Numbered from the stretch's first letter, positions 10,083 to 39,223 are shown. The stretch: 64,000 nucleotides of DNA from Candidatus Aenigmatarchaeota archaeon (GCA_038997165.1 JAWBAK010000002.1:3083-67082), one strand, 5' to 3'. The notes: generated by a model not told the origin, from the sequence alone. Numbers and translations are program-made.

Positions 10083-10128
10083 AAAAATAAAAAAGATAAG
10101 AGGAGAGCATAGTCATACTATATTACTT

Positions 10129-10767
10129 TTATGCTGGTAATACTGTTACTGTTAATGTATATGCATCTGGCTTTGTTGCTGGATTCCAAACTACTTCTAA
10201 TTTAAAGTTTACTTGATTATTGTTTGGATTCAAAGTTATACCACTTATTGTTATCTTTTTGCTATCTTCGTCAGCGCTGATGGAATAACTATTACAACTA
10301 CTTGAACCTGGTGATGTTATTGTACAAGTTGTACCACCTATAGTTACATGATATTCTTTTATTTCCGTAAATAATCCCGTAAATCCATTATTTTCACTAC
10401 TATCAAGAGCAATTTCTACATTAACATCAGCCGAACCTTGATTTCCTTTGTATTTTATTGTAAATGAAGTTACTTCAGTTTTATCTCCTGCTGTTGCTGT
10501 TAGACTAACTTGATAAGGATTTTGGTAACCATACTCTTGATTATTGCTATCTACTATTACTACTCCTTGCTTTACTTCTATTGTTGCTACTGCTGATGCA
10601 TAGTATTCTAGAAGTCCTGCTATTGATAGTGCTGCTAGACCAAAGATTGCTAAAAATATTGCTAAAACTTTTATAGCTGCTTTGTTTGCGTTTGATCTTT
10701 TTGACATGAATATAATAGGAAAGAAAGTATTTAAAGCTTTCGTTAGTGCAAATTTCAATAAGTGCAT
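10129..10767 (-). CDS. secreted beta-rich protein with N-terminal hydrophobic anchor (paralog of 9518-10045)
   Basis: 'KAAIKVLAIFLAIFGLAALSIAGLLEYYASA', then a Thr/Ser/Gly-rich beta-like domain. Confidence 0.4.
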   Translation of the reverse strand: MHLLKFALTKALNTFFPIIFMSKRSNANKAAIKVLAIFLAIFGLAALSIAGLLEYYASAVATIEVKQGVVIVDSNNQEYGYQNPYQVSLTATAGDKTEVTSFTIKYKGNQGSADVNVEIALDSSENNGFTGLFTEIKEYHVTIGGTTCTITSPGSSSCNSYSISADEDSKKITISGITLNPNNNQVNFKLEVVWNPATKPDAYTLTVTVLPA

Positions 10768-15066: not shown

Positions 15067-18000
15067 ATGATAAATAAAAGAATTTCTTTCGCGCTAATTT
15101 TCTTTCTAACTTTTTTATTTATAGAATTATCTTTCTCTAATTCTGCATATTTAATTCAAAAAGAAAAATTAGACGAAATATTAAAAAATAATAATTTTAT
15201 AATCTTATCTAAAATAAAATGTTATTTCGATAAAATATGTGCTTTAGATAAACCAATTAAAGGTTTTGAAAGTTATTTTTTTGAAGATAAGAAAATATTT
15301 AAAATTCATAGATTAGAGAGTTTATCAATTATAGATGCATATAGAGTTTGGAATACTAGTTTTGAAAATTTAAATTTAACTGGAAATAGTGTAAAAATTG
15401 CCATTTTAGATACTGGTATAGATATTTATCATCAAGATTTAAATTATTCTCTAGATAGTTGGAAATGTTTTTATTCTATTAACGAAAATGTTATAGAAAA
15501 TGATTGGAGCTATTGTAACGATGATAATGGTCATGGAACTCATGTAGCTGGAATAATTGCAGCTAGATATTTAGGAAATATTTCAAAGTGCTTTGAAGGA
15601 TATCCATGCGGAATAGCACCCAACGCAACATTATTTATTGCAAAAGTTTTTGATTCTAATGGATATGCATATTTAATAGATATACTAAATGCTTTAGAAT
15701 GGGCAGTTAATAATAGTGTAGATATTGTTTCTATGAGTTTTGGTATAGACTTATCGAGTTTTGGATTAAATTCATGCTATCCTCTTGGAAATTCTAGTTT
15801 AGAAAAAGCAATATATCTTTTTAATAGCTTATTAGATGAAATTTCTATTAAATACAATATAATTTTTGTAGCTTCCATAGGCAATAATCCTAATTCAATA
15901 TCTTCACCAGCATGCGCGAAAAATGTAATTGGAGTAGGTGCTATTAATAAAAATAAAAATATAGCATATTTTAGTTCAAGAGGTCCTATAGATAATAGAA
16001 TTAAACCAGATATAGTTGCTCCAGGCGTAAATATAAATTCTACCTTTCCAATAAATTCATATAAATCATTGAGTGGAACTTCAATGTCAACACCTTTTGT
16101 AAGCGGTGCTTTAGCTATTTTGATAGAAGCATTAAGAGAGAATAATATTTCTTATTCTTCTCAAGAATTAAAAGCAATTCTTTTAACTTCTCCAAACGAA
16201 GAATTTAGAAATAATATTTTTGGAAGTGGAGTTTTAAATGTTACTGAATTAATAAGAATTAGAAATAATTTTTTAACATTAAATATTGAAAAAAACGAAA
16301 CTTTAAGATTTAAAGTAAATAAAACAGATAATTATCCTTTCAAATTTACTATTTATAGGCATGAAAGATTTGAAGATTTAAATTTAGTTAGAGTAAGAAT
16401 AATTAAAGATAATAATGTAATTTTTGAAAGCGAAACCTTCGATAATGTCTTTCAATATAAAAATAATAGCTTAAGTGGAGAATTTTATATAGATGTAGAT
16501 ATTAAGATAATCAATAAAAGCAATACCAGCAATAAACAATTAAATCTTTTTACTTTTACATTTTCTCATAAAGTTTTAAATTTAACTGAATATCTTGAAG
16601 AAAATTTAAATAATTCTGTAGTATCGATGCTCAATGTTATTATTGATTCTCCAATAGAATTAAAATTAAATTTAGCAAATAGAACAATTAGAATTTTTAT
16701 TAGAGATTTTTCTGGTAATCCTATAGTAGCAGATAAAATAAATATTACTATATTAAATATTTCAGATAAAATTGTAAATACAACAGCTTATTTCAATAAA
16801 TCCGAAATTAATTTTACACTTCCGCCTAATCTAAATGAAAATTATTATAAACTTTATGTTATTGCTGAAAAAGAAAAAAGATTTGGAATTGCATATATTA
16901 ATTTTACTTATTTCTCATTCGAATTTTTAAGTCCTAGGGAAATTTTAAAGGTAATGAATGGAGATATTTTAAATATAACATTAAGATTTAATTATACAAA
17001 TATAAGTGTTTCACAAGCTTATTTGTATCTTGAAAATAATACAAATAAAAATATTTCTCTTAATTTTTCAAAAGAAAATTCAATTATAAGTAATATAACA
17101 TTAATTAATTTAGAGGAAGCAGGTAAATATTATTTATTCTTAAATATTTCTTTAGATGAAAATAACGGTGAATACTTTATTTTAAATCTTCCATTAATAG
17201 AATTTTCGCCAATATTTGATTATAATATTTCTTATCTTAAAAATTTGTTTGCAGATAAAGAGTATGTCTTTAATGTTTCGATCTTTCATATTAACGGAAC
17301 GAAACTTCAAATTAATAAAACTTTATGCATAGAAAATTCTACAACAAAAATATTTTGTAATTCTACAATTGATGATAGTGTTAGAATTCTTACAAACGTA
17401 TCTTTTGAGGGATTTTATAATCTTACTATAAATGTATTACACAACTCTAACTATTTAAATAAAAGTTTTCCAATAAAAATTGAATTTGAGCCAAATATTT
17501 TAATAATTGAGTTAGAAAAATCAACATTTACTATTTTTGAGCGACTAAATTTATCAGCAAGATTAATAAATTCTACAAAAAATTCTGAATGTACTTTTTG
17601 CAAAATATTTGTAAACATGACAGATAGCGAAGGAAGAGTAATATTCTTAAATAAGGAGTTAGAAGAGATTAAAAACATAAAAATTCCTAAAGACTTTAAA
17701 AAAGGAGTATATAATTTAACTCTTTTTTCAAAAATAAATCCAATTATTATAAATACAACTCAAATAAACGTAGAAACTTTAGATATTTCAACTAATGTTT
17801 CAGAAATGATATTTCCTAACTATCACAATGTTACAATAAATATCTCTATAAGTGAAAATGCAAATGTTAGTATAAATATAACTAAATATAATGTTAGTGG
17901 AATATTTCAAATAGTTTTAGATCCTTCGAATATAATTGATGGTTGTACTCCTGAAATAAATTCAGAAGGAATTTTGTGGTGTAATCAAACTAATAATATT

Positions 18001-19917
18001 ATTTTATCTATAAATTCTAGTGAAACTGCCACATTCTATATCGAAATTATTGCATTTGGGGAAAATTTAAATGGATATCTATTAGATAAATTTTATTCTG
18101 GTTTTTTAATTAGGCCATTAGAAAAAATAAATAGAAATGGTTGCGATGATATAAGAAGCGAAGACACTTTTTTAAATCCATTTATTAGGAATCATTGTTT
18201 TATAGATGAAAAGAATCAAAAAGATTTAGCAATAAATAAAAACGAAAAAATTAAATTTTTGGCAATCGCTTATGCAGGTGCTACATTAGATAAAAATATT
18301 TCAGTAAATGTAACTATAAATGTAACAGATGACTCTAATCTTACTATTTTTCAGAATACATCAAGTTTTAAAGATTTAATAAATTTTGAAATATTTAATT
18401 TCACAAAAAAAGGATTATATTTAATTAACTTAACTTTTGAGTTTAATAATATAACTAAAATAGAAACTTATAATTTAAGTGTTTATGAATTAAACTTTTC
18501 TATACAAATACCTAAAAATTACACCAAAGTTAATGATATATTAAGTATTTTTATTTTTGTTAATAGAACAAATGGAATTTCTGAAGAAATAATAAATAAC
18601 ATAACTTCTATATTTCTTTTAACACAAAATGCTAAAATAAAAAATTATAGATATGATAAATCATTACAAAAAATAGAAATTAACATTTCTTTTTCTAATC
18701 CATTTTTTGGAGATATAACTTTAAAAATTGAAGACGAATTAGGAATAGAAAGTAATATAACTATTAGAAATCTTACAGCATATCATTATGAAATTGAAAT
18801 TTCTTATCCAGAAACAGTATTCGTAGATATGGTATTTGCAGTAAAGGCTAGTTCTAAATTATTGCCCTCAAATATAAATATTCAAGCAAATTATACTATA
18901 GAGTATAGTGGAACGTGTTCTTTAGTTTCATCGAAAAATATTTTAAATACTAAAGAGGCATCTTTCATATTTAATGCAACTGATATTGGTGAGTGTAGTA
19001 TTAATATTAATTCAAACGCTACTTATTTAGATCTATTTTTTGAAAGTTATGGTCAAGCAAAAATTTCTATTTTATCTCCTCCTAAAAAAACAGAACCAAT
19101 AGAACTTCCTCAAATTCAACAATTAGCATTACTTATAAGAAAAGCTTCGGATATAATTGAAATAAAGGAAAATTCCTGGAACACAACTGTAATTTTTGTA
19201 AAAAGTATTGGTAGGAATATGAATGTTTCAGCAAAAATATTAAATTATCCAGAACATTTAGTTCAAATAATTCCTCCTAAACAATTAATCGAAGCTGATA
19301 AAGAAGGAATATTTTTGTTTAACATTTCTTTAGATAAAAATGAGACAAGAGAAGAATTTAACATAACTATTTTGTTTAATGGAAGTTTTATTACTAATAA
19401 AACTGATTTAAAGATTAAAGTTTTACGATTAAAGATAGAGGACAAAAAAATAGAATTAGAAAACGAAATTAGAGAATTGGAGAACGAAATTTCTGAATTA
19501 GAAAACAAAATAATAGAATTAAACCAAAGAGAATTATTAGACGAAATTTTAAATATAAAAAATTTGTTAGATTTAGCAAAAGAAGAGTTAAATAAAGGAA
19601 ATATAGCAAAAGTAATGGAAATTATTAACGATATAAAAAATTCAATAAACTATATAAAAAATTCAATAAACTATGTTAAGAATAAGTTAAATGAACAGCA
19701 AACAAAAGTAATGGAAAAACCAAACAATTTTACATTTTTATTAATAATTTTATTAATTATTGCTGGAATTTCTGCAATAATTTTTGTATTATTTATATAT
19801 CCAAAACTTAAATTTAAAAAACCATATTATGATATTAAAAAACAAAAATTTGTTTGGACAAAAGAAGATGAATCTGTTTGGGAAAAGCTGAAAGAAAAAT
19901 GGAGGAAAAAACAATAA
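15067..19917 (+). CDS. giant subtilisin-like (S8) serine peptidase, surface-anchored (1616 aa)
   Basis: Signal peptide, S8 catalytic triad motifs 'ILDTGIDIYHQD', 'HGTHVAGIIAA', 'GTSMSTPFVSGALA'. Then ~1100 aa with dozens of NxS/T sequons, coiled-coil 'ELENEIRELENEISELENKIIEL', and a C-terminal TM helix plus basic tail. Confidence 0.8.
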   Translation: MINKRISFALIFFLTFLFIELSFSNSAYLIQKEKLDEILKNNNFIILSKIKCYFDKICALDKPIKGFESYFFEDKKIFKIHRLESLSIIDAYRVWNTSFENLNLTGNSVKIAILDTGIDIYHQDLNYSLDSWKCFYSINENVIENDWSYCNDDNGHGTHVAGIIAARYLGNISKCFEGYPCGIAPNATLFIAKVFDSNGYAYLIDILNALEWAVNNSVDIVSMSFGIDLSSFGLNSCYPLGNSSLEKAIYLFNSLLDEISIKYNIIFVASIGNNPNSISSPACAKNVIGVGAINKNKNIAYFSSRGPIDNRIKPDIVAPGVNINSTFPINSYKSLSGTSMSTPFVSGALAILIEALRENNISYSSQELKAILLTSPNEEFRNNIFGSGVLNVTELIRIRNNFLTLNIEKNETLRFKVNKTDNYPFKFTIYRHERFEDLNLVRVRIIKDNNVIFESETFDNVFQYKNNSLSGEFYIDVDIKIINKSNTSNKQLNLFTFTFSHKVLNLTEYLEENLNNSVVSMLNVIIDSPIELKLNLANRTIRIFIRDFSGNPIVADKINITILNISDKIVNTTAYFNKSEINFTLPPNLNENYYKLYVIAEKEKRFGIAYINFTYFSFEFLSPREILKVMNGDILNITLRFNYTNISVSQAYLYLENNTNKNISLNFSKENSIISNITLINLEEAGKYYLFLNISLDENNGEYFILNLPLIEFSPIFDYNISYLKNLFADKEYVFNVSIFHINGTKLQINKTLCIENSTTKIFCNSTIDDSVRILTNVSFEGFYNLTINVLHNSNYLNKSFPIKIEFEPNILIIELEKSTFTIFERLNLSARLINSTKNSECTFCKIFVNMTDSEGRVIFLNKELEEIKNIKIPKDFKKGVYNLTLFSKINPIIINTTQINVETLDISTNVSEMIFPNYHNVTINISISENANVSINITKYNVSGIFQIVLDPSNIIDGCTPEINSEGILWCNQTNNIILSINSSETATFYIEIIAFGENLNGYLLDKFYSGFLIRPLEKINRNGCDDIRSEDTFLNPFIRNHCFIDEKNQKDLAINKNEKIKFLAIAYAGATLDKNISVNVTINVTDDSNLTIFQNTSSFKDLINFEIFNFTKKGLYLINLTFEFNNITKIETYNLSVYELNFSIQIPKNYTKVNDILSIFIFVNRTNGISEEIINNITSIFLLTQNAKIKNYRYDKSLQKIEINISFSNPFFGDITLKIEDELGIESNITIRNLTAYHYEIEISYPETVFVDMVFAVKASSKLLPSNINIQANYTIEYSGTCSLVSSKNILNTKEASFIFNATDIGECSININSNATYLDLFFESYGQAKISILSPPKKTEPIELPQIQQLALLIRKASDIIEIKENSWNTTVIFVKSIGRNMNVSAKILNYPEHLVQIIPPKQLIEADKEGIFLFNISLDKNETREEFNITILFNGSFITNKTDLKIKVLRLKIEDKKIELENEIRELENEISELENKIIELNQRELLDEILNIKNLLDLAKEELNKGNIAKVMEIINDIKNSINYIKNSINYVKNKLNEQQTKVMEKPNNFTFLLIILLIIAGISAIIFVLFIYPKLKFKKPYYDIKKQKFVWTKEDESVWEKLKEKWRKKQ

Positions 19918-21898: not shown

Positions 21899-22363
21899 AT
21901 GAAATCAAAAGCTCAAGCAGCTTTAGAGTTTTTAATGACATATGGTTGGGCAATATTGCTAGTAATAGTAGTAGTAGGAGCACTTTATGCAACAGGGATG
22001 CTTAAGCCATGTAGATGGGTAGGATTACAAGCAAAGGAATTTCCACTAAGTGAGGTAAGAGTAGTACCAATAAGATTAACAAAAAATGATTTAGTATTTG
22101 AAGTTTATTATCAACAAGCAGGTAATGCTGAATATGTAAGTGTTTCAATTTCAGGAACAGCAGATGGAAAATCTGTAACTATAGGTAATATAACAAATAC
22201 TACCTATTCATTTAGTTCCACAAGCCCAGTAACAATTACAGTATCTCTTTCAGAATTAAGTGGTGGAGAATGTGCGGATTTTGATATAACAATAGAATAT
22301 ATAAAACCAGGAGCAACAGCAACGAGCAAAGTTAGTGGAAAAATAACAGGACCTGTAAGTTAA
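21899..22363 (+). CDS. archaeal type IV pilin-like protein with class III signal peptide
   Basis: 'MKSKAQAALEFLMTYGWAILLVIVVVGALYA' is the canonical archaeal prepilin N-terminus (K-A-Q|A-ALEFLMTYGWA). The rest is a Thr/Ser-rich beta domain. Confidence 0.6.
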   Translation: MKSKAQAALEFLMTYGWAILLVIVVVGALYATGMLKPCRWVGLQAKEFPLSEVRVVPIRLTKNDLVFEVYYQQAGNAEYVSVSISGTADGKSVTIGNITNTTYSFSSTSPVTITVSLSELSGGECADFDITIEYIKPGATATSKVSGKITGPVS

Positions 22364-25817: not shown

Positions 25818-25835
25818 TAAAATACTTTTAGAATT

Positions 25836-26090
25836 GCTTAAGCGCTTAAGCAGTTCAAGCATGTTGACTAGTTACTTTTAAAAATTTAAAAATTAATATA
25901 TGGTTCGTAAGCCTACGATATTATCTAAATTAATCATGAAATTCTTTAATTTATAATTAAATGTTTTAATTCTTCAAATAGAAATGCTTTAACTGCTTGA
26001 AGCGCTTGAAGCGCTTATAAGCATAAGCAGCAAAAGAAATTTTGAAATATTTCTTCTGCTTAAGCGCTTAAGCAGATCAAGCAGTTAATA
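25836..26090. repeat. cluster of palindromic elements: two perfect 16-bp palindromes GCTTAAGCGCTTAAGC (25836-25851, 26058-26073), each followed by CAG(T/A)TCAAGCA...TTGAC, plus a composite variant (25995-26030)
   Basis: Read directly. Each element is its own reverse complement. A related copy lies in-frame inside the CDS at 25587-25621. Confidence 0.8.
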
Positions 26091-26166
26091 TATTGACAAA
26101 ATTAAATATAATATCACTAAAAAATAAAATATTTTATTTCTAAATGATAATTATATAACTTTTAGA

Positions 26167-26412
26167 AATTCTCACATTTTATATTATACTTTCATTTATA
26201 TTTTATAGTTAGTTTTATATCGAGAACTATCTCACATTTATTTTAATATTTGTAAAAGCTCTTTTTAAACAATTTAGAAGAATTATCTCTCACGTTTATA
26301 ATGAGAAACTAAACAAATTTAAAATTTAGATTTTTAAGTTCTAAATAGTATTAAACAAATTTTATTATTCTATAGTGGCAAACTATCTTTAGTCTTCTCT
26401 CACATTTTACAG
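26167..26412. repeat. iteron-like motif (a)T(T/A)TCTCACATTT(T)A x4 in direct orientation (starts ~26173, 26232, 26291, 26399), first three with exact 59-bp spacing, plus one inverted copy at 26808-26826
   Basis: Motif occurrences read directly. Only the ~10-12 bp core is conserved; flanks are not. Confidence 0.6.
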
Positions 26413-27253
26413 AAAAATAACTAGTAACTATTTTTAAATAACTATTATTAAACAAATTACTTATTCATAGATAGTACTAGAAAAGTCAATTTTTTATCAT
26501 TATTTATGAATTTAAAACATAAAGTAAAAAATTATATACTCAATTATATATAATTTTTTGTATAAATTATTAAAAGGTACTAAATAATTTACTTAAAAAA
26601 TAGTGAAAATATTATAAAAAACAGCATTCCATTATTATTATTCTTCTATAGATTTATTTAAATTATTTTTAATTTTTTTATATGTATAAACTTTTTATAT
26701 TTTAAACTTAACTTTAAATCTCTTTAAATATAGCTTTATCGTAAAAATATACCTTTAAAAATTTATAGCTGGCTCTGTAGACCAGTTATAAATTTTTAGA
26801 ATTTAAAAAAATGTGAGAGTTTTTAATTTATTTATTTACTTAATAGTAATTGTTAATAGATTTAAAGAATAAATAAAAAATATTCTGAAAATTAGTGAAC
26901 AAACTTTTTTCTAATATTTGTTAAAATGTTTATTATCCAGATGGCGCATCTATAAGATTCGAGAATTTTATTTTTTATGTCTTTTGTTTTTTCGAAAATA
27001 ATAAATATCTTAAAAGATAAAAGATTATAACTATACAAAACAAAAATATATGCTTATTTCTAAGAAGGAACTTAATAAAAAATTGAAATTAAAAATTTCA
27101 AAGTACAAAAATCAGAAATTATATTGCAAACTATCCTTTTTATAAGAATTGCGATATAAAAGTAAAAAATATTACTAATACTTAAATGTCATATTGGTAA
27201 GAGTGAAAAATTAAAAAAAGAAATATATGAAAGATATTTGGTACTTCTTTCTA

Positions 27254-28184: not shown

Positions 28185-28310
28185 ATGGAACACGCTTCAA
28201 TTAAAACTGCTATTTTTATTGGTATTGCAATTTTAATAATTTTATTTTTCATAATAATAGGTATTTACTATTTTAAAATTTTATCAACGCAAGTAGCTAT
28301 TACCCCATAA
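28185..28310 (+). CDS. tiny single-pass membrane protein 1 of 7 (41 aa)
   Basis: Hand translation gives MEHASIKTAIFIGIAILIILFFIIIGIYYFKILSTQVAITP. It is the first of seven tightly packed same-strand mini-ORFs. Confidence 0.3.
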   Translation: MEHASIKTAIFIGIAILIILFFIIIGIYYFKILSTQVAITP

Positions 28311-28312
28311 AA

Positions 28313-28489
28313 ATGCCTATAGAAATATCAACAGAATTGCTTTATATATTAATTTTTTTCTTGATAATTGTAGCAGTAATATTAACTTTTATTTTTTCTG
28401 GTTTCGATATCAATAGAATGCAAGAAAGTATTTCAAGTTTTTGGGATAGTGTAGATAGATTTGCTAAGAAAATATTTGGAGAAAAATAA
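28313..28489 (+). CDS. tiny single-pass membrane protein 2 of 7 (58 aa)
   Basis: MPIEISTELLYILIFFLIIVAVILTFIFSGFDINRMQESISSFWDSVDRFAKKIFGEK. Confidence 0.35.
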   Translation: MPIEISTELLYILIFFLIIVAVILTFIFSGFDINRMQESISSFWDSVDRFAKKIFGEK

Positions 28490-28491
28490 TT

Positions 28492-28677
28492 ATGGAAGTA
28501 AATTTTTTGATCCTAATAATTCTAGGTATTATAATTTTTTCAATTATTTTAATTGTAATATTTTCTATGATTTGGCCTTCGAAGTTTTCTACATTTTTAA
28601 AAGAAGCATGTTTATTAACAGTTGGAAAATTTTTTGCACAACCATATATATGTGAAGCTTTTAGAGTAGCAGAATGA
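28492..28677 (+). CDS. tiny single-pass membrane protein 3 of 7 (61 aa), CxnC tail
   Basis: TM helix, then 'EACLLTVGKFFAQPYICEA'. Paralogous to protein 4 ('EFCKITIGNIPFIGEGVCET'). Confidence 0.4.
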   Translation: MEVNFLILIILGIIIFSIILIVIFSMIWPSKFSTFLKEACLLTVGKFFAQPYICEAFRVAE

Positions 28678-28865
28678 TTCCGATAAGAACTCTTATAATA
28701 ATTTTTTTAATAATTATTGCAATTATATTTTTAATTTCGATTATCTTTGCATTTTTTAAGGGTGGAGGAGTAGCTCAAGTTTTTTATGAATTTTGCAAAA
28801 TAACTATTGGCAATATTCCATTTATTGGAGAGGGTGTTTGCGAAACTTTAATAAAAGAGATATAA
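28674..28865 (+). CDS. tiny single-pass membrane protein 4 of 7 (63 aa), CxnC tail
   Basis: Overlaps the previous stop (ATGA). TM helix + 'FFKGGGVAQVFYEFCKITIGNIPFIGEGVCETL'. Confidence 0.4.
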   Translation: MIPIRTLIIIFLIIIAIIFLISIIFAFFKGGGVAQVFYEFCKITIGNIPFIGEGVCETLIKEI

Positions 28866-28876
28866 AAAAATAATTT

Positions 28877-29038
28877 ATGGAGCAAACGATTTGGATAATA
28901 ATTCTTATAGTTATTGCAATTCTTTCGTTTATTGTAATATTGAGCATAATATCTTTAGCAAGAGAAGGTGGAATGAGAAGTTTAGGAGATTTGTTTAATT
29001 TATCTAAATTTTTGGAAATTGTTGGAATAAAGAAATGA
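28877..29038 (+). CDS. tiny single-pass membrane protein 5 of 7 (53 aa)
   Basis: MEQTIWIIILIVIAILSFIVILSIISLAREGGMRSLGDLFNLSKFLEIVGIKK. The GG motif after the TM matches protein 4. Confidence 0.35.
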   Translation: MEQTIWIIILIVIAILSFIVILSIISLAREGGMRSLGDLFNLSKFLEIVGIKK

Positions 29039-29187
29039 TAGAGGATGAATTATGGATAGTTTTAGGAATTATTTTATTAATAATAGTTGGAATTTTAATT
29101 TATCTAGCTATAACTAATCCAAAATTTCAAGAATTGATAAAGAATATGATATGGAATCTCAAAATTCCAAAACCTTGGAAAAAATAA
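29035..29187 (+). CDS. tiny single-pass membrane protein 6 of 7 (50 aa)
   Basis: MIEDELWIVLGIILLIIVGILIYLAITNPKFQELIKNMIWNLKIPKPWKK. Start overlaps the previous stop (ATGA). Confidence 0.35.
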   Translation: MIEDELWIVLGIILLIIVGILIYLAITNPKFQELIKNMIWNLKIPKPWKK

Positions 29188-29188
29188 T

Positions 29189-29314
29189 ATGCAAATACCA
29201 ATTAAAATAGTAATTATTATAATAATTTTAATAATTTTAATTACTTTTGCAATCTTTTTTGCAACTTTTTTAAAATCTTCTATTGCTAATATTTTATCTC
29301 AAATATTTGGTTAA
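29189..29314 (+). CDS. tiny single-pass membrane protein 7 of 7 (41 aa)
   Basis: MQIPIKIVIIIIILIILITFAIFFATFLKSSIANILSQIFG. Confidence 0.3.
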   Translation: MQIPIKIVIIIIILIILITFAIFFATFLKSSIANILSQIFG

Positions 29315-31305
29315 ACTTGAACTATTGTTTCTATCATTGGAGTTAATATTAGTGAACTAAAGAGAACTGTTAATATATATAATATTAGTGATATTATCAA
29401 TGTTTTCGAAAGAAAAGAAAGAAAATTATATCTTTCTAATCCACTTTCTAAACCGACAATTAATAAACTTGAAATTATTATCATTTCAACCAAATAAATA
29501 CCTAATGAAAAAGTTATAGATCCAAAAGAAATTGAACTTACTGTAGATGCAGAAATAAATGGAATACCAGTTAAAGGTAAAGCTTCTGTTGATTCCTGAG
29601 TTGGAAGTTCTCCAATACTAAAGAATACTTTAATAATTAGAGATAATAGAATAATTACTAATGAAATTCCAGTTCCAATTATAATTGGCATTAAGAATGT
29701 TATTATAAATTTTAGATTATTTACGTTATCACTTATTAATTCTTCAATCTTTGCTTGAAGTTTAAAAAGGTTAGATAAATATTCAGAAATTATTATCATA
29801 GTATCTCCAGCAAATCTATATCCTTTTTTATAACTTTCGATTATAATTTCAAAAGAATTTTTTATAATACTTGATGGATATATTTTTATTATTTTTTCTA
29901 TTGATTCTTTTAAATTTCCACTATAGGATAATATTGATAACAATTTTTCAAATAATTTTCCAATTTCAAATTTTTTATATCTTTCAATTCCTTTATTAAT
30001 TGCAATCTCTAAAGGATTTCCAGCTCTTAAATAATAACCTGTTTGATACAATACTGTTGGAAATTCGCTTTCTATTTTTTCAATAATTTTTCTTTTTAAT
30101 AAAATATTTCTTAATGCAAAAATTAAAATTAGTGAGATTGGAACAAACAATAAAAATAATGATGAAATTGCAAGAAAAACTAATGTAAAATTATCTCTTA
30201 ATAATTCCTCACACTCTTCTTTACTTAATGTCAAATCTTTTGGTTTTGTTTTAAATTTTGTATTTGCCCATTCTACACATTTTTCAAAATTATAATTTAG
30301 TGAAATAAAATTTGGAAGAGTTAAAGAGGAAAGAATTAATGATATTAAAATTCCAACAAAAATTAAATTAATTTTAAAGTTAGAAAATTTTATTTCTAAA
30401 GGATTTTCTATAAGAAGAAAGGAAATTGTTAATGGTCTAGAAGTTATTAAAGTTATTATTACTAGAAATAAAATTATTGGTAAAATTACATTGAAAACTA
30501 TTACTAAAGTTGTGAAAGAAAAAATTTGAGGGAAAAAAATAGAAAATAGTGGTAAAATAGTTAAAGAAAGTAAAGGCAAAATTACACCTAATCCTAAAAT
30601 AATTGTTGATGGTAATTTTAAACTTCTCGCATATTTTTCCATTCTTTGAAAATTTTCTTCATGCATTACTCTTATCGCTTCTTTTATTAAATTTTCTGAA
30701 GAATATGGATTTTCACTATATGCTATCAATAATTTTAATGCTTCGCAAAATTCTTTCGCTTCTTTATACCATCTTTCGATTATTTCATTTAAACCTTCTT
30801 TAATTGTAGTTTCTCCAACTAAAAATTTAGCTAAAATTCTTTTAAAATCTTTTCCAATTTCACCACTTAAATTACTCGCAACTAAAACAACAGCTCTTTC
30901 TAAATTTGGAACTTGTTTTAAAGAAATACTCATATATATAATTGCATGCATCATTTCGCTAGAGGCAAAATTTCTAATTAGTTTAGCTTTAAGAAATGGA
31001 TAATAATATATTAAAAATGAAATTAAGGATAATAATATAAAAAAAATAAAAGATATTGAGAATCCTAATGAAAAAGCTAATATTGCAATTCCTATTATTC
31101 CAAAAAGAAAAATTAGAATTGCTGCAGAAAAATTTGAAGCTGGAGGTATTCTTAATCTACAAAATTTATTAACTTCATTATATAACTCTTCTTCTTCTTT
31201 TGGAATTTTAATTTTTATTATTTGAAAACTAAAATTACAAAGTAATTCGTAAAAAGAAAGTTTTTTGGATTTTTTATATTCTTCAATAATTTGGTTTACA
31301 TCCAT
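29311..31305 (-). CDS. TadC/FlaJ-like (T2SS-F family) polytopic membrane platform protein candidate
   Basis: 664 aa. Two ~130-170 aa helical cytoplasmic segments alternate with TM bundles. These are 'NLERAVVLVASNLSGEIGKDF...' and '...TVLYQTGYYLRAGNPLEIAINKG...'. The second carries the GspF/TadC-like 'L..aG.pl..Al' motif. The assignment is by pattern only. Confidence 0.4.
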   Translation of the reverse strand: MDVNQIIEEYKKSKKLSFYELLCNFSFQIIKIKIPKEEEELYNEVNKFCRLRIPPASNFSAAILIFLFGIIGIAILAFSLGFSISFIFFILLSLISFLIYYYPFLKAKLIRNFASSEMMHAIIYMSISLKQVPNLERAVVLVASNLSGEIGKDFKRILAKFLVGETTIKEGLNEIIERWYKEAKEFCEALKLLIAYSENPYSSENLIKEAIRVMHEENFQRMEKYARSLKLPSTIILGLGVILPLLSLTILPLFSIFFPQIFSFTTLVIVFNVILPIILFLVIITLITSRPLTISFLLIENPLEIKFSNFKINLIFVGILISLILSSLTLPNFISLNYNFEKCVEWANTKFKTKPKDLTLSKEECEELLRDNFTLVFLAISSLFLLFVPISLILIFALRNILLKRKIIEKIESEFPTVLYQTGYYLRAGNPLEIAINKGIERYKKFEIGKLFEKLLSILSYSGNLKESIEKIIKIYPSSIIKNSFEIIIESYKKGYRFAGDTMIIISEYLSNLFKLQAKIEELISDNVNNLKFIITFLMPIIIGTGISLVIILLSLIIKVFFSIGELPTQESTEALPLTGIPFISASTVSSISFGSITFSLGIYLVEMIIISSLLIVGLESGLERYNFLSFLSKTLIISLILYILTVLFSSLILTPMIETIVQV

Positions 31306-31340
31306 AATAAATAAATAAGTTTACCATATATGTATATATT

Positions 31341-34046
31341 ATGAAATTATTAGAAGAAGTTGCAATAAGATTTTTAATAGGTATATTTATTGCATCTCTT
31401 ATAGGTTTTTTATTTTGGTGGTTAGTTATTCATAATGAAACAGATAGAATTGTTGAAAGAAATTTTCAAAAATTTTATTCTGCATTAGATGAAGCATGTT
31501 CTAGAAGATCTACAATAAATAATCCTACAAAAGTTTATGTAGAAATTCCTCAAAAAAGATTTCAAAATCCATTCGAAGCAGGAATAAATTGGTTAAAAGA
31601 AAAATTAGGAATTCCAGTTCCATTTACTGCTTTTCAAGATCCATATTATAATTTTCATTGGGAATTTTTTCCGCCAGAACCACCATATACATTTGGACAA
31701 GGTATTCCAGAATCTTTAGCTGCATTTTTTATTCCATGGAGCGAAGATTTACCTTGGAGTTCTAATTTAATATTAACTATGGCTTTTAATGCATATGCTT
31801 TGGGATTAGATATGTTTGAAGCAGTAAAGCAACTTGAAAAAGCAAAATCTAAAGCTTATTTATCTATAAAACACAAAATGTCTAATTTTGGGAAAAAAAT
31901 TCTTAATAATTTCGATGAAATAAAAATAATTGTTAAAGCGGTAAATGAAATGGAAGAATATATTAAAAAAGTTGGAAACTATGTTATTAGAGTAAAAGGT
32001 ACTGCAATAAAAATTGCAGATGTTAGTGGAAAAATTATTCATGAAATTAAATTTATATCTAAAGTAACCACAATGTATGCATTATTTTGTCTAGCAATAG
32101 AAGATAAAACTTTAGGAGAATGTTTTACTGAAGGAGTAATTTTTGGAGTAGGTGCAGATGTAGGTAAATTAATAATGAAAAATGTTGTTTTTCCTCGTAT
32201 AAAGAAAAAATTAGAAATTTATTATTCAATTACTGTTGGAAAAATTAAAAAAGGTTTTTCAGAATTTTTAGAGTATGTTTCTGACGAAGTAAAATCGATA
32301 AAATATAAATTTCTTGGAATGGAAAATATTGTTGCTGAAAATATAGATGAAATAAATAAATTAACCGATGACATTAAAAATCTTGTAGATGATGCCAAAA
32401 AATTATTAAATGAGGGAAAAAATTCTGAAGCTCTTAGCAAAATAAATGAAGCAAAAGGAAAATTAAAGGCAATTTCTTCATTAATTGAAGATACTTCTAA
32501 AAAAGCACCACCAGACTACTTTTCGGCTTTATTCTTTACACAAATTGAAATTGAAAAACTACAAGATGAAATAAATGATATAATAAAGAGATGTCCTGAA
32601 GATTTAATAAAAGATATTTCAAAAGGTTTTGTTGAACTAGATTCTCTAGTTAAATCTACAGAAGAGTTACACGATGATATTCATACAAAATCTACAAAAA
32701 AAGTTTTAGAGAGAAAAGGATTTAATTTTGAGTATGATGAAAAATTAAAAAGAAATGTATATGTATTAACAGAAGAAAGTAATAAAGATTTATTTAATGA
32801 ATTTAAAGAAGCAATAGAAGCTAGAAAAGCGATGGGAGAAACAATTTATAGTTATGGAGATTTTAAATTTCAATATGATGAAAAAGGAAACTTAATAAAA
32901 GTTATTTACGATCCATTTGATCCAGATAGCATTACAAATACTATAAAAGAAGGTATTTTGGGTTATCCAAAAAAATTTTTGGCATATTTAGAAGAAAAGG
33001 CATTTATTCATAATAAATTAGTAGATGGAGATGCTGTTGCTAAAGTATTAGAAGATATGAAAGATGATCTTCAAAGAGATGAAAACTTAAGAAAAAGATT
33101 ATTAGAAGCATTTAAAAAAATAGGACATGAAATTGATGAAGATGAATTAATTTATAGAATTGACGATACTATAAGAAAGTATAAAGCTGGAGAAAATTTA
33201 GTATTAGTTGTAGAAAAAAATAGTGAATTAGGAAAACTCTTTGATAAATTACCAAGCGACATTTCTTCACAAGATCTTTCACATTATATTAGAAAAGCAA
33301 TTTATGATGCTATAAAACAAGGTGATGATACTGAATTAAAAAATTTATATGGGTTGATAAATGGAAAAACTTTAAGAATTAAAGAAGATATGGAAATATT
33401 TTTTAGAAGAGGTGTTATAGGATATGCTGCCTTAAGAGCTATTGATTTATACACACCTTTAGGAGCAAGTTGGTGGGATAAATATATTTCTTACTATGGT
33501 TATGAAGGTCAAAAAATTCCTGTAGGATGTCAAACTCAATGTGATGAAGGAAAAATTTGTTTGCAGTTAGGAGCATGCATTAGACAATTTGATTTACCCG
33601 AAAGCTGTCAAAAAATTGGTATAAAAGATGTAAAAATAAAAAGAAATAGTATTGTTGCAAATGATCCAAGATTTTATTTAGTTAGTCCATGCTATGCTGA
33701 ATTAGAAATTTTTATTGATAATTCTGATGCAATACTATTTATTCTTCCAAAAATAGATAAAAATAGGTTAAATGAACCAAATTATTGTTATGCAACAGAG
33801 AATTTTGTTAATTGGTACATAGGTACTTATATTGCTCAATATACAACTAGATGTGTGGGAGCAATAGGTTGCGCTATACTAACTGGTGGTCTTGGAGCTA
33901 TAGATGCTGTTTTGGCATGTTTATTTGGAGCTGCAGGAGGTGTTTGTGGAGTTGTTGTAGATTTAATAGATTTAGCGTTTTCATTTTTAAAAGAATCTAC
34001 TTTTATTTGGCCAACAGTTTATCAAACTTATCCTTGGTTAGCATGA
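31341..34046 (+). CDS. large (901 aa) membrane-anchored coiled-coil / Cys-rich protein, hypothetical; first gene of six-gene coupled operon
   Basis: N-terminal TM, long helical middle, Cys-rich segment (CQTQCDEGKICLQLGACIRQ...), C-terminal Gly/Cys-rich hydrophobic segment. No P-loop seen. Confidence 0.45.
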   Translation: MKLLEEVAIRFLIGIFIASLIGFLFWWLVIHNETDRIVERNFQKFYSALDEACSRRSTINNPTKVYVEIPQKRFQNPFEAGINWLKEKLGIPVPFTAFQDPYYNFHWEFFPPEPPYTFGQGIPESLAAFFIPWSEDLPWSSNLILTMAFNAYALGLDMFEAVKQLEKAKSKAYLSIKHKMSNFGKKILNNFDEIKIIVKAVNEMEEYIKKVGNYVIRVKGTAIKIADVSGKIIHEIKFISKVTTMYALFCLAIEDKTLGECFTEGVIFGVGADVGKLIMKNVVFPRIKKKLEIYYSITVGKIKKGFSEFLEYVSDEVKSIKYKFLGMENIVAENIDEINKLTDDIKNLVDDAKKLLNEGKNSEALSKINEAKGKLKAISSLIEDTSKKAPPDYFSALFFTQIEIEKLQDEINDIIKRCPEDLIKDISKGFVELDSLVKSTEELHDDIHTKSTKKVLERKGFNFEYDEKLKRNVYVLTEESNKDLFNEFKEAIEARKAMGETIYSYGDFKFQYDEKGNLIKVIYDPFDPDSITNTIKEGILGYPKKFLAYLEEKAFIHNKLVDGDAVAKVLEDMKDDLQRDENLRKRLLEAFKKIGHEIDEDELIYRIDDTIRKYKAGENLVLVVEKNSELGKLFDKLPSDISSQDLSHYIRKAIYDAIKQGDDTELKNLYGLINGKTLRIKEDMEIFFRRGVIGYAALRAIDLYTPLGASWWDKYISYYGYEGQKIPVGCQTQCDEGKICLQLGACIRQFDLPESCQKIGIKDVKIKRNSIVANDPRFYLVSPCYAELEIFIDNSDAILFILPKIDKNRLNEPNYCYATENFVNWYIGTYIAQYTTRCVGAIGCAILTGGLGAIDAVLACLFGAAGGVCGVVVDLIDLAFSFLKESTFIWPTVYQTYPWLA

Positions 34047-34462
34047 TCAAAATAAAAAAATTAAAATTATCTGCATTTATAACTTATTTAGTTTTATTTT
34101 TTTCAATGATTTTTGTTATAATTTTTTTATATTTAGGAATTAACATTCTTTTGATAAATATTTATAAAAACAATTTTTTTATTTCAAAAAGTACTTCTGA
34201 ATTTCTTTCTGCAATTATGAATTCTTTATTTTCTTCTACAAATAATATTACTATAGAAATTACATTTCCAAAAGAAGAAATGGAAATATATTTTTTTGAT
34301 GAGAATATAACTGTAAAGAAAGGAAAAGAATTTTTTTCTTCAAAAATTTTTAAACCAAGTTATATTAATTTTAATGTTTCAAATAATGTTATAAAAACAA
34401 CATCGTTTTATAATACAAAAATTCTAATAATAAAAGTAAACGATGAAATAAAAATAATATGA
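34043..34462 (+). CDS. N-terminally anchored small protein (operon gene 2), hypothetical
   Basis: Start ATG overlaps the upstream TGA (ATGA). 'MIKIKKLKLSAFITYLVLFFSMIFVIIFLYLGI' TM, then a polar domain. Confidence 0.4.
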   Translation: MIKIKKLKLSAFITYLVLFFSMIFVIIFLYLGINILLINIYKNNFFISKSTSEFLSAIMNSLFSSTNNITIEITFPKEEMEIYFFDENITVKKGKEFFSSKIFKPSYINFNVSNNVIKTTSFYNTKILIIKVNDEIKII

Positions 34463-34854
34463 AATTGCAAATTTCATTTATTCCAGAATCAATGTTAGAT
34501 GTTTTAACTTTAATAATTGTAATTTCTATGACATTTGGAATGTATATTTTATATACAGAATATAAATTAATTTTAAAAAGAGATGAAAATTTAGATTTTC
34601 AAAATTATAATTTTGCTCAAGTTTTTATTGGAGATAAATGTATACTTTATAATAATATTAGCAAAGGAATTTTAGATTATAATAAAATAAAAAATAAACA
34701 AAGTTGTTTAAATTTAGAAAAAAATATAAGCATTATTTTAAATTCGGAAAAAATTGTTTATAATAACGATTGCGATTTTTCTAATACAAAAGTTATAATT
34801 CCGATAATAGTTTTTAAAGAAAGTTTTCAAGAAGCAAAATTAATAATATGTTAA
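34459..34854 (+). CDS. N-terminally anchored small protein (operon gene 3), hypothetical
   Basis: Overlapping start/stop. TM 'VLTLIIVISMTFGMYILY'. Confidence 0.4.
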   Translation: MKLQISFIPESMLDVLTLIIVISMTFGMYILYTEYKLILKRDENLDFQNYNFAQVFIGDKCILYNNISKGILDYNKIKNKQSCLNLEKNISIILNSEKIVYNNDCDFSNTKVIIPIIVFKESFQEAKLIIC

Positions 34855-35243
34855 TTCCAAAAATAATTACAACATTTTTAACATTAATTTTTTCAATTAT
34901 AGCTTTTTCTTTTGTTTATTTTTTATTGCAAAATTTACCAAAAGCAAAAGTAGAAATACAATATAAATTAAGAGAGGAAAATCCTTTTTCTTCTCATCTA
35001 TGTCAAGTATTTTTAAGTTCAGATGAAATAAAAGAACTAATTATAAAAACAATTAAAAAAGAAAATATTGAAAATTCTAAAGCATTAATTTTAGATAGGC
35101 TTTCTAATTTAATTGAAGATAGAGGATTTGAAATAGTAATTTCAAACGAAAGTATAAAAAAAGGAGCTTTATCGTATGAAGATATATATTCATGCTACTT
35201 TTTTTATAATAAAAAATTGTATGAAATAATAATAAAAATATGA
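34848..35243 (+). CDS. N-terminally anchored small protein (operon gene 4), hypothetical
   Basis: 7-nt overlap with the previous gene. TM 'ITTFLTLIFSIIAFSFVYFLL'. Confidence 0.4.
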   Translation: MLIPKIITTFLTLIFSIIAFSFVYFLLQNLPKAKVEIQYKLREENPFSSHLCQVFLSSDEIKELIIKTIKKENIENSKALILDRLSNLIEDRGFEIVISNESIKKGALSYEDIYSCYFFYNKKLYEIIIKI

Positions 35244-35608
35244 AAACATTAATTGGAAATTTAATATTATTTTTATTACCTTTAGTACTTTTTATAATTG
35301 CTTTTTATTTAACGGCAGGTATTTTAAGTAGAGAAATAAGTGTTATAGATATTTCTTCTAAAATTTTTAATGTAATAAATGAAGCTGAAATTTATAAACA
35401 ACAAATAAGAAATATTACGTTAGAAAAACTAAAAGAAAATAATAATTTAAAAGAATTTTCATTTAGTGGATATTATACTTTTTTCAAAATTTCAATAATT
35501 GAAAGAGATAATTCTCAAATAAAAATAGAAGTTTTTGGATATCCAAAAGAGGAAATAATTGGTATAAGACTGATTATTCATTATATCGATGAAATAAAAT
35601 TATGGTAA
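35240..35608 (+). CDS. N-terminally anchored small protein (operon gene 5), hypothetical
   Basis: ATGA overlap. TM 'LILFLLPLVLFIIAFYLTAGIL'. Confidence 0.4.
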   Translation: MKTLIGNLILFLLPLVLFIIAFYLTAGILSREISVIDISSKIFNVINEAEIYKQQIRNITLEKLKENNNLKEFSFSGYYTFFKISIIERDNSQIKIEVFGYPKEEIIGIRLIIHYIDEIKLW

Positions 35609-36810
35609 ACGAACTCTTAATATTTTTATTGATTATTTTTATAGTTATATCTGTAATTACTTATTTTATTATCTCTACAATAACTAAAGTAGAAATTAAA
35701 GAATATGTTCCAAGAATTATTTTTTCGAGAGATGCTTTTTTAGATATTAATTTTCTTTTTTCCGATTTTGATGGAAAATCTTCTGAATACAATTATGCAT
35801 TTTACATTCAAAATAATTTTTTAAACACATTAAATTTAAATATTTTTTCAGAATTTTTAATTTTAGATGAAAATGTAAAAATTTCTTTATATAAAGAAGA
35901 GTTTTCTGATTTATTAGCTTCTAATGTTAAAAAGAGATATGATATTTCATTTAAAAATATTTTTGATAATTCAAAGATTAGCGGATTAAATTTTTGTGAA
36001 GAGGAGAGAAAAGCTATTTTAGGCTGTAAATATGAATGTTGTAAAGGAGATAATATAAATGATGGAATTTGTTGGAAAGATTGCAAAATTTATAAATTAG
36101 ATCTTTCTGAGAAAAAAAGAAATCTTTATTGTCAAATTTTTCCAATTATTTATACTTCAATAAACTATTCGGCTATTATAAATGGAACTGTTGAAATTAG
36201 TAAAAATACTTATGAAGATAGAATTAAATGGAATGTAAGAAAATCGCCAATTAATATTTTTGTAAGACCATCTCCAATACCATATAATAATCTTTTACCT
36301 TTAATGCTTACTTTTGAAATAGAGGGGGAAAATGTGTTTCTAAGAAAGTTAAGGCTAGAAATTATAAATTATTCTATTGAAATTGAAACTTTTTTTGAGA
36401 AAAAGATAGAAAGTTTAGAAGCATCACAAATTTGCGAAATAGAAGTAAATAGATTTATTAATGGAAAAGTATATCTTGGAAAAGAAAAGAATTGTACTTT
36501 TGAACCTTTAAACATTACAGTTAAAAGAATTTTAAAAGATAGAGTTGAAGAAAAAATAGCAACCAAAAATGAAGATATAAACAAATTAATAAATTCTGTT
36601 TGTAAAGAATATATTTCTGATGGAAAAATAGACTATGAAAACTGTGCAAAAGAATTAAATAAAAGAGAATATAATATTTGTAGTTTATATAGTGATTTAG
36701 AAATTTGTAAAATTGGAGAAGAAAAGTTAAATAAAATAATTATTCTTATTTCAGCTGAAATTGAAAAGAGAGAAGAATATAGAAAAAAATTAATACCAAC
36801 TTTTTGTTAA
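35602..36810 (+). CDS. N-terminally anchored Cys-rich extracellular protein (operon gene 6, 402 aa), hypothetical
   Basis: TM 'LLIFLLIIFIVISVITYFII'. Cys cluster 'CEEERKAILGCKYECCKGDNINDGICWKDCK' plus later Cys pairs. Confidence 0.4.
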   Translation: MVNELLIFLLIIFIVISVITYFIISTITKVEIKEYVPRIIFSRDAFLDINFLFSDFDGKSSEYNYAFYIQNNFLNTLNLNIFSEFLILDENVKISLYKEEFSDLLASNVKKRYDISFKNIFDNSKISGLNFCEEERKAILGCKYECCKGDNINDGICWKDCKIYKLDLSEKKRNLYCQIFPIIYTSINYSAIINGTVEISKNTYEDRIKWNVRKSPINIFVRPSPIPYNNLLPLMLTFEIEGENVFLRKLRLEIINYSIEIETFFEKKIESLEASQICEIEVNRFINGKVYLGKEKNCTFEPLNITVKRILKDRVEEKIATKNEDINKLINSVCKEYISDGKIDYENCAKELNKREYNICSLYSDLEICKIGEEKLNKIIILISAEIEKREEYRKKLIPTFC

Positions 36811-37170
36811 TTACTTTATTTTACAGCCACAAAGCTTTACTAAACAATCTTTAAAAGATCTTAAACCCAAATAATTACATATATTTTTGTAACTTGCAAA
36901 ATCATCTCCATCTTTTACACCAATATCTTTATTCTTGATTTTTGATGATAAATCATCTTCTGAAATTCCAAGATCATATGGACTACTTACTTCAATTGCT
37001 AAACATTTTGTTTTATCAACTATTTCCGAACAAAATATACTTTTTATATTTTCTCTTTTCATCCAATCTAAAGGGCTACTTCCTATTCCTAGCCAAGATA
37101 AAACAAAAAGTGCTGTTACTATTAAAATTACAATTATTATTATTATTTCTAGTGTTGTTAAAACTTTCAT
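36811..37170 (-). CDS. small N-anchored Cys-containing secreted protein, hypothetical
   Basis: 'MKVLTTLEIIIIIVILIVTALFVLSWLG' TM, then a domain with 5 Cys. Confidence 0.35.
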   Translation of the reverse strand: MKVLTTLEIIIIIVILIVTALFVLSWLGIGSSPLDWMKRENIKSIFCSEIVDKTKCLAIEVSSPYDLGISEDDLSSKIKNKDIGVKDGDDFASYKNICNYLGLRSFKDCLVKLCGCKIK

Positions 37171-38707: not shown

Positions 38708-39223
38708 TCATATTTTTAAAAATTGAGAAAATTTTGTTTGAATAATAAATGATATTTTTAAAACATCTTCAATATTTATAACTATAAAACCTTTAAGTTT
38801 TGAATTATTAATTTCTTCAATTATTTTATTTTTTATTTCGTTAGGATCTTTATAAGTATCTATTAATTTAGTTGCATAGTTCTTAATTTCATCTTCTAAT
38901 AATGTTTTATTTAAAAAATTTATAAAAACACTTTTTTCTTTATTAGCTTCTATATCTGTTTCTAATTTAATAAAACTAATAGTTTTATTAAAAATAAATA
39001 TATTGAAATCAAAAGTTAAGTTTTTAATTTTTAGAGGGCTTGGATTAAAAATTGTAATTTCTCGGATTTCTATTTCAGATTTTTGTGTTTTTTCAAAAAT
39101 TTTAGAGTTAGAAATAAAAAAGTTAATTAAAGTAAAAATCGAAAGAAAAAATAATATCAAAGAAATTAAAAACAACAAAATTGAAAATATAAATAATAAT
39201 TTATTAATTAACTTTATTTTCAT
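38708..39223 (-). CDS. N-anchored secreted protein, hypothetical
   Basis: Signal/TM 'LLFIFSILLFLISLILFFLSIFTLINFF'. Confidence 0.3.
   Translation of the reverse strand: MKIKLINKLLFIFSILLFLISLILFFLSIFTLINFFISNSKIFEKTQKSEIEIREITIFNPSPLKIKNLTFDFNIFIFNKTISFIKLETDIEANKEKSVFINFLNKTLLEDEIKNYATKLIDTYKDPNEIKNKIIEEINNSKLKGFIVINIEDVLKISFIIQTKFSQFLKI

Follow-up and report, generated by a model that had tools for sequence, protein, structure and literature searches.

The DNA analysed here is a stretch of 64,000 nucleotides from Candidatus Aenigmatarchaeota archaeon (GCA_038997165.1, JAWBAK010000002.1:3083-67082), referred to below as the window, with a G+C content of about 23% and archaeal housekeeping genes (S19e, primase, FtsZ and an intron-bearing tRNA); its source is a tiny hot-spring archaeon that probably depends on a host. 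The subject of this study is a run of six consecutive genes on its plus strand, G1 to G6, which an earlier note on the same DNA had described as a translationally coupled operon of N-anchored proteins. G1 (31341-34046) encodes a protein of 901 aa with 15 Cys; G2 (34043-34462), G3 (34459-34854) and G5 (35240-35608, starting MKTLIG) encode N-anchored, pilin-like proteins of 139, 131 and 122 aa; G4 (34848-35243) encodes an N-anchored protein of 131 aa that starts with MLIPKII, and G6 (35602-36810) an N-anchored, Cys-rich protein of 402 aa with 14 Cys. Hydropathy analysis bears out the N-anchoring, with a single strongly hydrophobic N-terminal helix in each of the six products. The overlaps between successive start and stop codons were likewise found as described, spanning 4 nt (ATGA) at 34043, 34459 and 35240 and 7 nt at 34848 and 35602, and G1-G6 are without a significant family in Pfam, NCBIfam or PHROGs, in line with the statement that no domain is recognisable.

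Overlapping same-strand gene pairs account for 5/5 junctions within the operon versus 6/30 elsewhere in the window, so that five consecutive overlaps are not a background state. Across 8 relatives the spacing at the G1-G6 junctions ranges from -26 to +10 nt, and the ATGA overlap of G4 and G5 is kept in all 8 relatives checked. An independent gene caller, applied to a 16-kb Logan contig of the same DNA, returned identical gene calls. Relative to the closest relative, L006 (84% identical; loci from other genomes are denoted by L and a number), the ratio of nonsynonymous to synonymous substitution rates (dN/dS) of G1-G6 is 0.07-0.22. The G2 frame is open from 33851, with the alignment of orthologues favouring a start at 34043. 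The possibility, raised in the earlier note, that the overlaps are sequencing frameshifts in a single larger gene was ruled out by the genes' own N-terminal helices, by dN/dS values well below 1 and by gene boundaries that recur in 17 Ca. Aenigmatarchaeota genome loci; the same recurrence disposes of the other concern voiced there, a lack of conservation across relatives. Given the overlapping stop and start codons, it is plausible that the translation of G1-G6 is coupled; the equal stoichiometry implied in the earlier note would be a further inference from the same arrangement.

The six genes are real and form the core of the locus, but as a functional unit they are to be extended to a cluster of about 9 kb and 15 genes (28185-37170). 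Divergently oriented to G1, and separated from it by an AT-rich intergenic region of 35 bp (31306-31340) that is presumed to act as a bidirectional promoter, lies a platform gene (29311-31305, minus strand), encoding a polytopic protein of 664 aa of the FlaJ/TadC/T2SSF type with about nine hydrophobic segments. The other end of the cluster beyond the platform gene consists of seven tandem tiny pilin-like genes, t1 to t7, all on the plus strand, whose products each consist almost entirely of a hydrophobic helix and a short tail: t1 (28185-28310; 41 aa, MEHASIKT...), t2 (28313-28489; 58 aa), t3 (28492-28677; 61 aa, with a conserved Cys pair in KE.CLLT..K...CE.F), t4 (28674-28865; 63 aa, a paralogue of t3 with a Cys pair), t5 (28877-29038; 53 aa, MEQTIW...), t6 (29035-29187; 50 aa, MIEDELW...KIPKPW) and t7 (29189-29314; 41 aa), the 3' end of the last overlapping the 3' end of the convergent platform gene by 4 nt. 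On the far side of the operon, convergent with G6, G7 (36811-37170, minus strand) encodes a pilin-like protein of 119 aa with six Cys that starts with MKVLTTLE followed by a hydrophobic helix.

All seven tiny genes were also called on the Logan contig by the independent gene caller, and most of them are conserved across the phylum, t6 being present in 16 loci. The tiny proteins are weakly related to one another, with hhalign values of 95% for t3-t4 and 96% for t2-t7. Throughout the cluster dN/dS is 0.03-0.31, except for t2, where dS = 0; individual values are 0.03 for t5, the best conserved of the tiny genes, 0.06 for t1, 0.22 for t3 and 0.03 for the platform. With respect to L006, dN is highest for G6 (0.092, the fastest-evolving gene) and G1 (0.083) and lowest for the platform (0.008), as expected of exposed and core parts, respectively. 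The lowest G+C content of the window, 0.18, is found at 34-36 kb, which fits the Ile/Leu/Phe/Lys/Asn-rich composition of the cluster proteins as judged from their translations.

The set of platform gene, tiny genes, G1-G5, in part G6, and G7 recurs in every locus that is long enough to show it, and gene order is conserved over the 17 genome loci down to about 35% identity of G1, which provides the synteny in related genomes that the earlier note had proposed to look for. Housekeeping genes (S19e, primase, FtsZ, tRNA-Lys) flank the cluster in conserved order. All close homologues of G1 belong to metagenome-assembled genomes that bear the label Candidatus Aenigmatarchaeota; most of these genomes originate from hot springs. 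The loci fall into clade A, which includes the lineage of the window, and clade B, which comprises more divergent Aenigmatarchaeota (L003, L010-L017, L019, L020), with L023 and L026 as outgroups. One of the clade-B loci, L010 (AWOA01000066.1), was deposited as 'Candidatus Calescibacterium nevadense'. It has the full cluster in its Aenigmatarchaeota form (the ATPase described below, the platform, tiny genes and G1-G3) and probably represents archaeal DNA that was misbinned, or that entered a single-cell assembly as contamination. In the clade-A loci L004, L006, L007 and L022, a domainless N-anchored protein of 171 aa is encoded near the cluster (38708-39223, minus strand, in the window), with tRNA-Lys and a gene for a 302-aa protein in between.

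The platform protein has a Pfam T2SSF match with E=5e-5 and 23.7 bits, just short of the cut-off of 25.2, and T2SSF is matched in 6/11 members of its family; a profile search of PDB sequences with the platform alignment yielded nothing significant. It is 38% identical (E 1.5e-124) to the platform of L003, which adjoins a FlaI/TadA-type ATPase. This ATPase of 744 aa, encoded immediately upstream of the L003 platform gene, matches FlaI with E 5e-36 and TadA with E 8e-35, and tblastn finds the ATPase gene in this position, next to the platform gene, in 12 related loci. In clade B the genes from the ATPase through G5 and G7 are collinear on one strand, with a G6-like gene on the opposite strand, while in clade-A loci the platform gene is inverted. 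The outgroup locus L026 contains the ATPase (58% identical to that of L003), the platform, small leader-bearing proteins and a G1-like protein, followed by G3-like and G7-like proteins. As a side observation, clade B has a protein of about 282 aa with a lipobox-like N-terminus (..FLSGC), encoded 3' of the G6-like gene on the opposite strand (minus strand; L003 15321-16169, L017 15381-16226, L011 15402-16265), which has no counterpart in the cluster of the window.

The N-termini of orthologues outside the window lineage link these small proteins to prepilins. In clade B, G2 starts with MKG[ST] and a hydrophobic helix (7/7), G3 with MKGQ....PE (8/8) and G5 with MKG (5/5), while t2 (8/8) and most t3 sequences (MKGAIEL) start with [KR]G and a hydrophobic helix; the t1 orthologue of L019 starts with MKGVLESHIQT, and G4 orthologues start with MRKGLLPAKLI in L003 and MKGSGTIPTLI in L020. 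Leaders of the [KR]G kind are also present in the orthologues of L023 and L026. In its form, the combination of [KR]G and a hydrophobic helix corresponds to the class III signal peptides of archaeal prepilins, so that we refer to these leaders as class-III-like; the majority of the cluster proteins in the more distant relatives begin with one. K2 and Q4 are invariant across the G3 family, which puts Gln at +1, a residue typical of EppA-type substrates. In clade A the Gly at -1 is consistently replaced, with MKLQ in G3 (6/6), MK[TSGA] in G5 and M[KR][VAG] in G7, and some proteins begin approximately where the cleaved form would start, as seen for t3 (ME.. versus MKGAIE..) and G4 (MLIPKII versus MRKG-LLPAKLI). 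In the window, t1-t7 start directly with ME, MP, MI or MQ, the residue at -1 is L, T, V or S where a leader is present, and an upstream extension of the open reading frames (ORFs) is impossible. No prepilin peptidase is evident among the neighbours of the L003 cluster.

Canonical leaders are found elsewhere in the window. A stand-alone protein of 154 aa (21899-22363, plus strand) has the archaeal pilin N-terminus MKSKA/QAALEF (MKSKA/QAALEFLMTYGW; the slash marks the -1/+1 boundary), with Q at +1 and E at +5, and by this signature shows that the organism also has putative canonical class III signal substrates. At 8196-10767 on the minus strand, three successive genes encode proteins of 441, 175 and 212 aa that are secreted or N-anchored and have no Pfam domain; the middle one (9518-10045, minus strand) has a canonical class-III-like leader, MKKG/IIL, and the trio may be a second pilin-like set. 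Together, the canonical KA/Q and KKG/I leaders suggest that the organism has a prepilin peptidase.

G1 belongs to a family of 23 members in an indexed search, and an exhaustive HMMER scan of 1.84 billion proteins gave 28 cluster representatives below 1e-30. Conservation is concentrated in the N-terminal 160 and the C-terminal approximately 240 residues, whereas the coiled-coil middle is a variable insert that is missing from forms of about 770 aa. Invariant features are G14 and F23 in the N-terminal helix, the motifs DPYY..WE.FPPEPPY and PWSEDLPWSSN, and a C-terminal Cys pattern around GCQT.C..GKIC.QLGAC, DPRFYLVSPCY and NYCYAT. The exhaustive scan further delineates a wider superfamily of proteins of about 700-1200 aa that have the N-terminal and/or C-terminal modules in common. 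Several members carry leaders (MKGLTISAQ, AKGFTISAQ, MANSKGASQD), as does, in class-III-like form, the G1 orthologue of one outgroup locus, L026. A Pfam scan of the distant superfamily members revealed no domains; one of these members is encoded in a complete ATPase-platform cluster and another in a pilin-rich locus. In L023, the G1-like protein is followed by MKGQ and MKGF proteins, by an MKGQ protein of 808 aa that contains Laminin_G_3 and Peptidase_C1 domains, and by five pilins. A second, weaker hydrophobic stretch of G1, C-terminal and rich in Gly, Ala and Cys, spans residues 838-883. Potential N-glycosylation sites (N-x-S/T sequons) were uninformative for topology, with 1 observed versus 3.6 expected in G1 and near-expected densities in G2-G6.

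For G3, a search with the single sequence retrieved only 4 close relatives, and its profile finds orthologues in the outgroup loci L023 and L026, too; K2, Q4, C61, D73, K76 and C83 are invariant and E10 nearly so. For G6, hhalign detects diverged homologues in L022 (95% over 290 columns) and in the opposite-strand gene of clade B (91% over the N-terminal 100 columns). G7 has six invariant Cys and the C-terminal motif C..K.CGC; it shares both with the tandem MKGIELPIN... pilins of L023, where this pilin family is present in 5 tandem copies, and also aligns with a 118-aa protein of L026 that starts with MAKRKGVSLPID. The t5 profile matches the N-termini of the L023 MKGIELPIN pilins. An all-against-all comparison with hhalign gave matches between G2-G5 that are confined to the hydrophobic helices, at probabilities of at most 14%. 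Profile searches of the PDB with the G3 and G7 alignments produced, as regards pilins, only N-terminal matches with E > 0.5. Structure prediction with AlphaFold2 (AF2) was performed for G1 (23 sequences, pLDDT 67) and G3 (5 sequences, pLDDT 62.5). The G1 model begins with helices at 2-31 and 33-55 and continues with strands, an extended helical section in the middle and, at the C-terminus, a beta domain; in the G3 model a single long helix (10-43) near the N-terminus precedes about six strands, an arrangement which at its low confidence fits a pilin topology. The predictions are too weak to confirm a pilin fold.

Three further parts of the window lie outside the cluster. At 15067-19917 (plus strand) a subtilase of 1616 aa is encoded (Peptidase_S8, E 7e-59), with an N-terminal signal and a C-terminal anchor; since it contains 81 N-x-S/T sequons versus 25.8 expected, it is probably a heavily N-glycosylated surface protein. 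An N-anchored protein of 465 aa with DUF2341 and RCC1 repeats is encoded at 50995-52392 (plus strand); for archaeal type IV pilus loci, it has been suggested that DUF2341 proteins act as adhesins at the pilus tip in the manner of PilY (PMC4858521). Finally, 25818-27253 is a gene-free stretch of 1.4 kb with 10-23% GC per 100 nt, apart from one 100-nt bin of 34% around repeats. It contains the palindromic repeat TGCTTAAGCGCTTAAGCAG at 25835 and 26057, and a degenerate version of it at 26012. The relatives L002 and L004 have corresponding gaps without genes. Several copies of the segment that carries the repeats, in both orientations and with 86-90% conservation, are present in L004, L022 and L002. 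The stretch has no match in Rfam and could be a replication origin or a regulatory or non-coding RNA region.

Archaeal type IV pilus loci, as catalogued by Makarova, Koonin and Albers in 2016, combine a FlaI/TadA-like ATPase and FlaJ/TadC with a major pilin; typically they also encode at least 5 minor pilins and large proteins of the adhesin or S-layer type, and conserved Cys are numerous (PMC4858521). In DPANN archaea, 'dark matter' islands with FlaI/TadC and signal-peptide proteins have been predicted to encode divergent pilins (PMC6393860, Fig. 2A), and a genomic survey reported FlaG, FlaI, FlaJ 'and adjacent archaellum homologs' in Aenigmarchaeota (PMC8407114). The cluster resembles archaeal type IV pilus loci in its platform and, in relatives, ATPase, in its many small proteins with an N-terminal helix and, among the orthologues, [KR]G leaders, in its one or two large proteins and abundant conserved Cys, and in the fast evolution of its lineage-specific non-core parts. 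It differs from them in that G1-G7 and t1-t7 match no described pilin family in Pfam or NCBIfam, in its seven distinct subunits of 41-63 aa, in the leader-bearing superfamily of about 900 aa with motifs of its own and, in the window lineage, in degenerate leaders and an unlinked ATPase. As G1-G7 have no match to archaellin (PF01917) at E <= 1 and neither PF01917 nor FlaH (KaiC-like) is present in the loci L003, L002, L004 and L026, the cluster is not an archaellum; it does share with FlaF/FlaG the placement of small N-anchored, perhaps unprocessed proteins beside a FlaI/FlaJ-type pair.

Bacterial minor-pilin operons such as fimU-pilVWXY1E of P. aeruginosa, gspH-I-J-K of the type II secretion system (T2SS) and comGC-GG of Bacillus have a presumed role in priming and capping the filament. 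They are similar in that four or five pilin-like proteins of about 120-190 aa are packed with one large non-canonical partner of about 1000 aa, with the ATPase and platform genes adjoining or separate. In contrast to these, the large protein of the present cluster itself has a pilin-like N-terminus, and the archaeal system has no secretin or PilMNOP. The resemblance is one of operon architecture only; homology in sequence is absent and none in structure is demonstrated, with no match in Pfam or NCBIfam to FimU/PilVWX or GspHIJK (N_methyl, GspH/I/J/K). Tad/Flp and Methanococcus Epd pili, with their very short major pilins, likewise have near-helix-only subunits of about 40-65 aa, the genes for which stand in tandem close to one of the TadC type; here, however, there are seven different conserved families instead of copies of one pilin, and they are leaderless in the window lineage. 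Neither a Flp-type pilin nor TadE/TadF pseudopilins were recognised: the Flp motif G/XXXXEY is absent from the t1-t7 and G sequences, the sole Flp-related match being an insignificant one to Flp1_like (E 0.46) in 2/14 members of the G7 family.

We consider it probable that the six genes are the central operon of a cluster of about 9 kb and 15 genes whose products, in the membrane and outside the cell, would be components of a type IV filament machine resembling the archaeal type IV pilus. This machine would be specific to Ca. Aenigmatarchaeota and related archaea and is most likely a lineage-specific version of a known one. The earlier comparison with minor-pilin/pseudopilin or surface-complex operons is supported by the platform gene 35 bp upstream, the ATPase in 12 loci and the leaders of the orthologues. 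The FlaJ/TadC-like platform, powered by a FlaI/TadA-type ATPase encoded elsewhere in the genome, would pull single-helix subunits out of the membrane and stack them via their N-terminal helices. G2-G5, the pilin-like N-terminal module of G1 and probably G6 would constitute a low-abundance initiating, tip or base set, with a role like that of the minor pilins and the large adhesin of fimU-pilVWXY1E, or of GspH-K, whereas G7 and/or the seven t proteins would form the filament shaft. The Cys-rich, fast-evolving domains of G1 and G6 would be exposed contact surfaces, plausibly for attachment to host cells or substrates, and the overlapping stop and start codons would keep the expression of the six genes coupled.

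A number of results weigh against this interpretation. Searches via Pfam, NCBIfam and PDB profiles gave no significant match to known pilin families, and comparison of the predicted models to the PDB with Foldseek gave no significant neighbour for either G1 (best E 0.07) or G3 (best E 0.6). Paralogy of G2-G5 was rejected, as they represent four different families with no detectable relation beyond the helix. A FlaI/TadA homologue is missing from the 64 kb of the window and, in all clade-A relatives, from the 10 kb around the cluster. The window copies of G1 (MKL), G2 (KLS), G3 (MKL/Q), G5 (MKT) and G7 (MKV) are without the canonical Gly/Ala at -1, and G4, G6 and t1-t7 have no leader; processing by a prepilin peptidase is therefore unproven, and no such peptidase (A24: FlaK/PibD/EppA) was noticed among the window proteins scanned, a subset of ORFs. 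Lastly, the stretch 838-883 of G1 may anchor the protein in the membrane a second time, which would be at odds with its being built into a filament.

The last two points form the basis of the main rival explanation, according to which G1-G6 stay uncleaved and build a membrane-anchored base or stator, a pseudo-periplasmic scaffold around the platform that anchors the machine to the cell envelope, so that only G7 and/or the tiny proteins polymerise. FlaF and FlaG, which such parts would resemble, are pilin-like and unprocessed; the cleavage site is missing conservedly, as all six clade-A G3 sequences attest, and the invariant G14 and F23 suggest specific intramembrane contacts of the G1 helix. 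Set against this are the canonical [KR]G leaders of the orthologues in clade B, L023 and L026, and the lack of similarity to FlaF/FlaG or PF01917. Moreover, the C-terminal hydrophobicity of G1 is weak or deleted in many family members (Kyte-Doolittle value, KD, <= 1.4 in the wider family; indels in P0005-P0007), for which reason the stretch is probably not a conserved membrane anchor. We regard a base or stator as a good deal less probable than the filament machine, though it deserves to be kept in mind. A pseudopilus-type system for surface assembly or secretion, akin to the Sulfolobus bindosome or the T2SS pseudopilus, would use the same core of ATPase, platform and small pilin-like proteins as a short piston or scaffold without a long filament, delivering other proteins, for instance G1, G6 or surface proteins encoded nearby, to the outside of the cell. 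Such a system would account for the many distinct, low-copy pilin-like genes with no obviously amplified major pilin, and large secreted or anchored proteins are indeed encoded nearby (the S8 subtilase and the DUF2341/RCC1 protein). It is unlikely nevertheless: the L003 ATPase matches BasE (E 4e-11) far more weakly than FlaI or TadA, no substrate-binding proteins with a class III signal occur within the cluster, and the five tandem L023 copies of the G7 family look like the behaviour of a major pilin. That the cluster is unrelated to type IV filaments, being a lineage-specific envelope or membrane complex or a viral or mobile remnant beside a T2SSF-like gene, would be consistent with the platform as the only match to a known family and with the locally lowest GC of the window. 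The linkage of platform and ATPase is, however, kept across deep divergence, the flanking housekeeping genes retain their order, the orthologues carry leader motifs, and matches were found neither in PHROGs nor in 2.9 million viral contigs; we consider this explanation very improbable.

Compared to a lineage-specific version of the known machine, a bolder proposal is that the cluster represents a distinct, DPANN-centred class of type IV filament that serves as a host-contact organelle. Three marks would set this class apart: a leader-bearing 'giant pilin' of about 900 aa (the G1 superfamily), four fixed small partners, and up to seven helix-only micro-subunits. In the window lineage, the subunits of such a filament would be leaderless and assembled without processing by a prepilin peptidase, which to our knowledge is held to be universal for type IV pilins. 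We find this proposal doubtful; if true, leaderless assembly without a prepilin peptidase would break that rule. The systematic loss of canonical leaders in one clade is in any case an oddity in pilin biogenesis.

DPANN archaea such as the Aenigmatarchaeota are thought to depend on physical contact with a host, and the structures that mediate this contact are mostly hidden among 'hypothetical' genes. The assignment proposed here gives 15 hypothetical genes a putative function, as components of a machine that resembles the type IV pilus; it comes with a definition of their conserved families and motifs and shows their linkage, throughout the phylum, to a FlaI/TadC core. G1 and G6 emerge as candidates for proteins exposed to contact, and the shaft may be built from G7 and the tiny proteins. 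The cluster is an uncharacterised variant of archaeal type IV pilus loci and leaves what is known of this kind of system unchanged; its main value is the handle it offers on the cell-surface biology of DPANN archaea.

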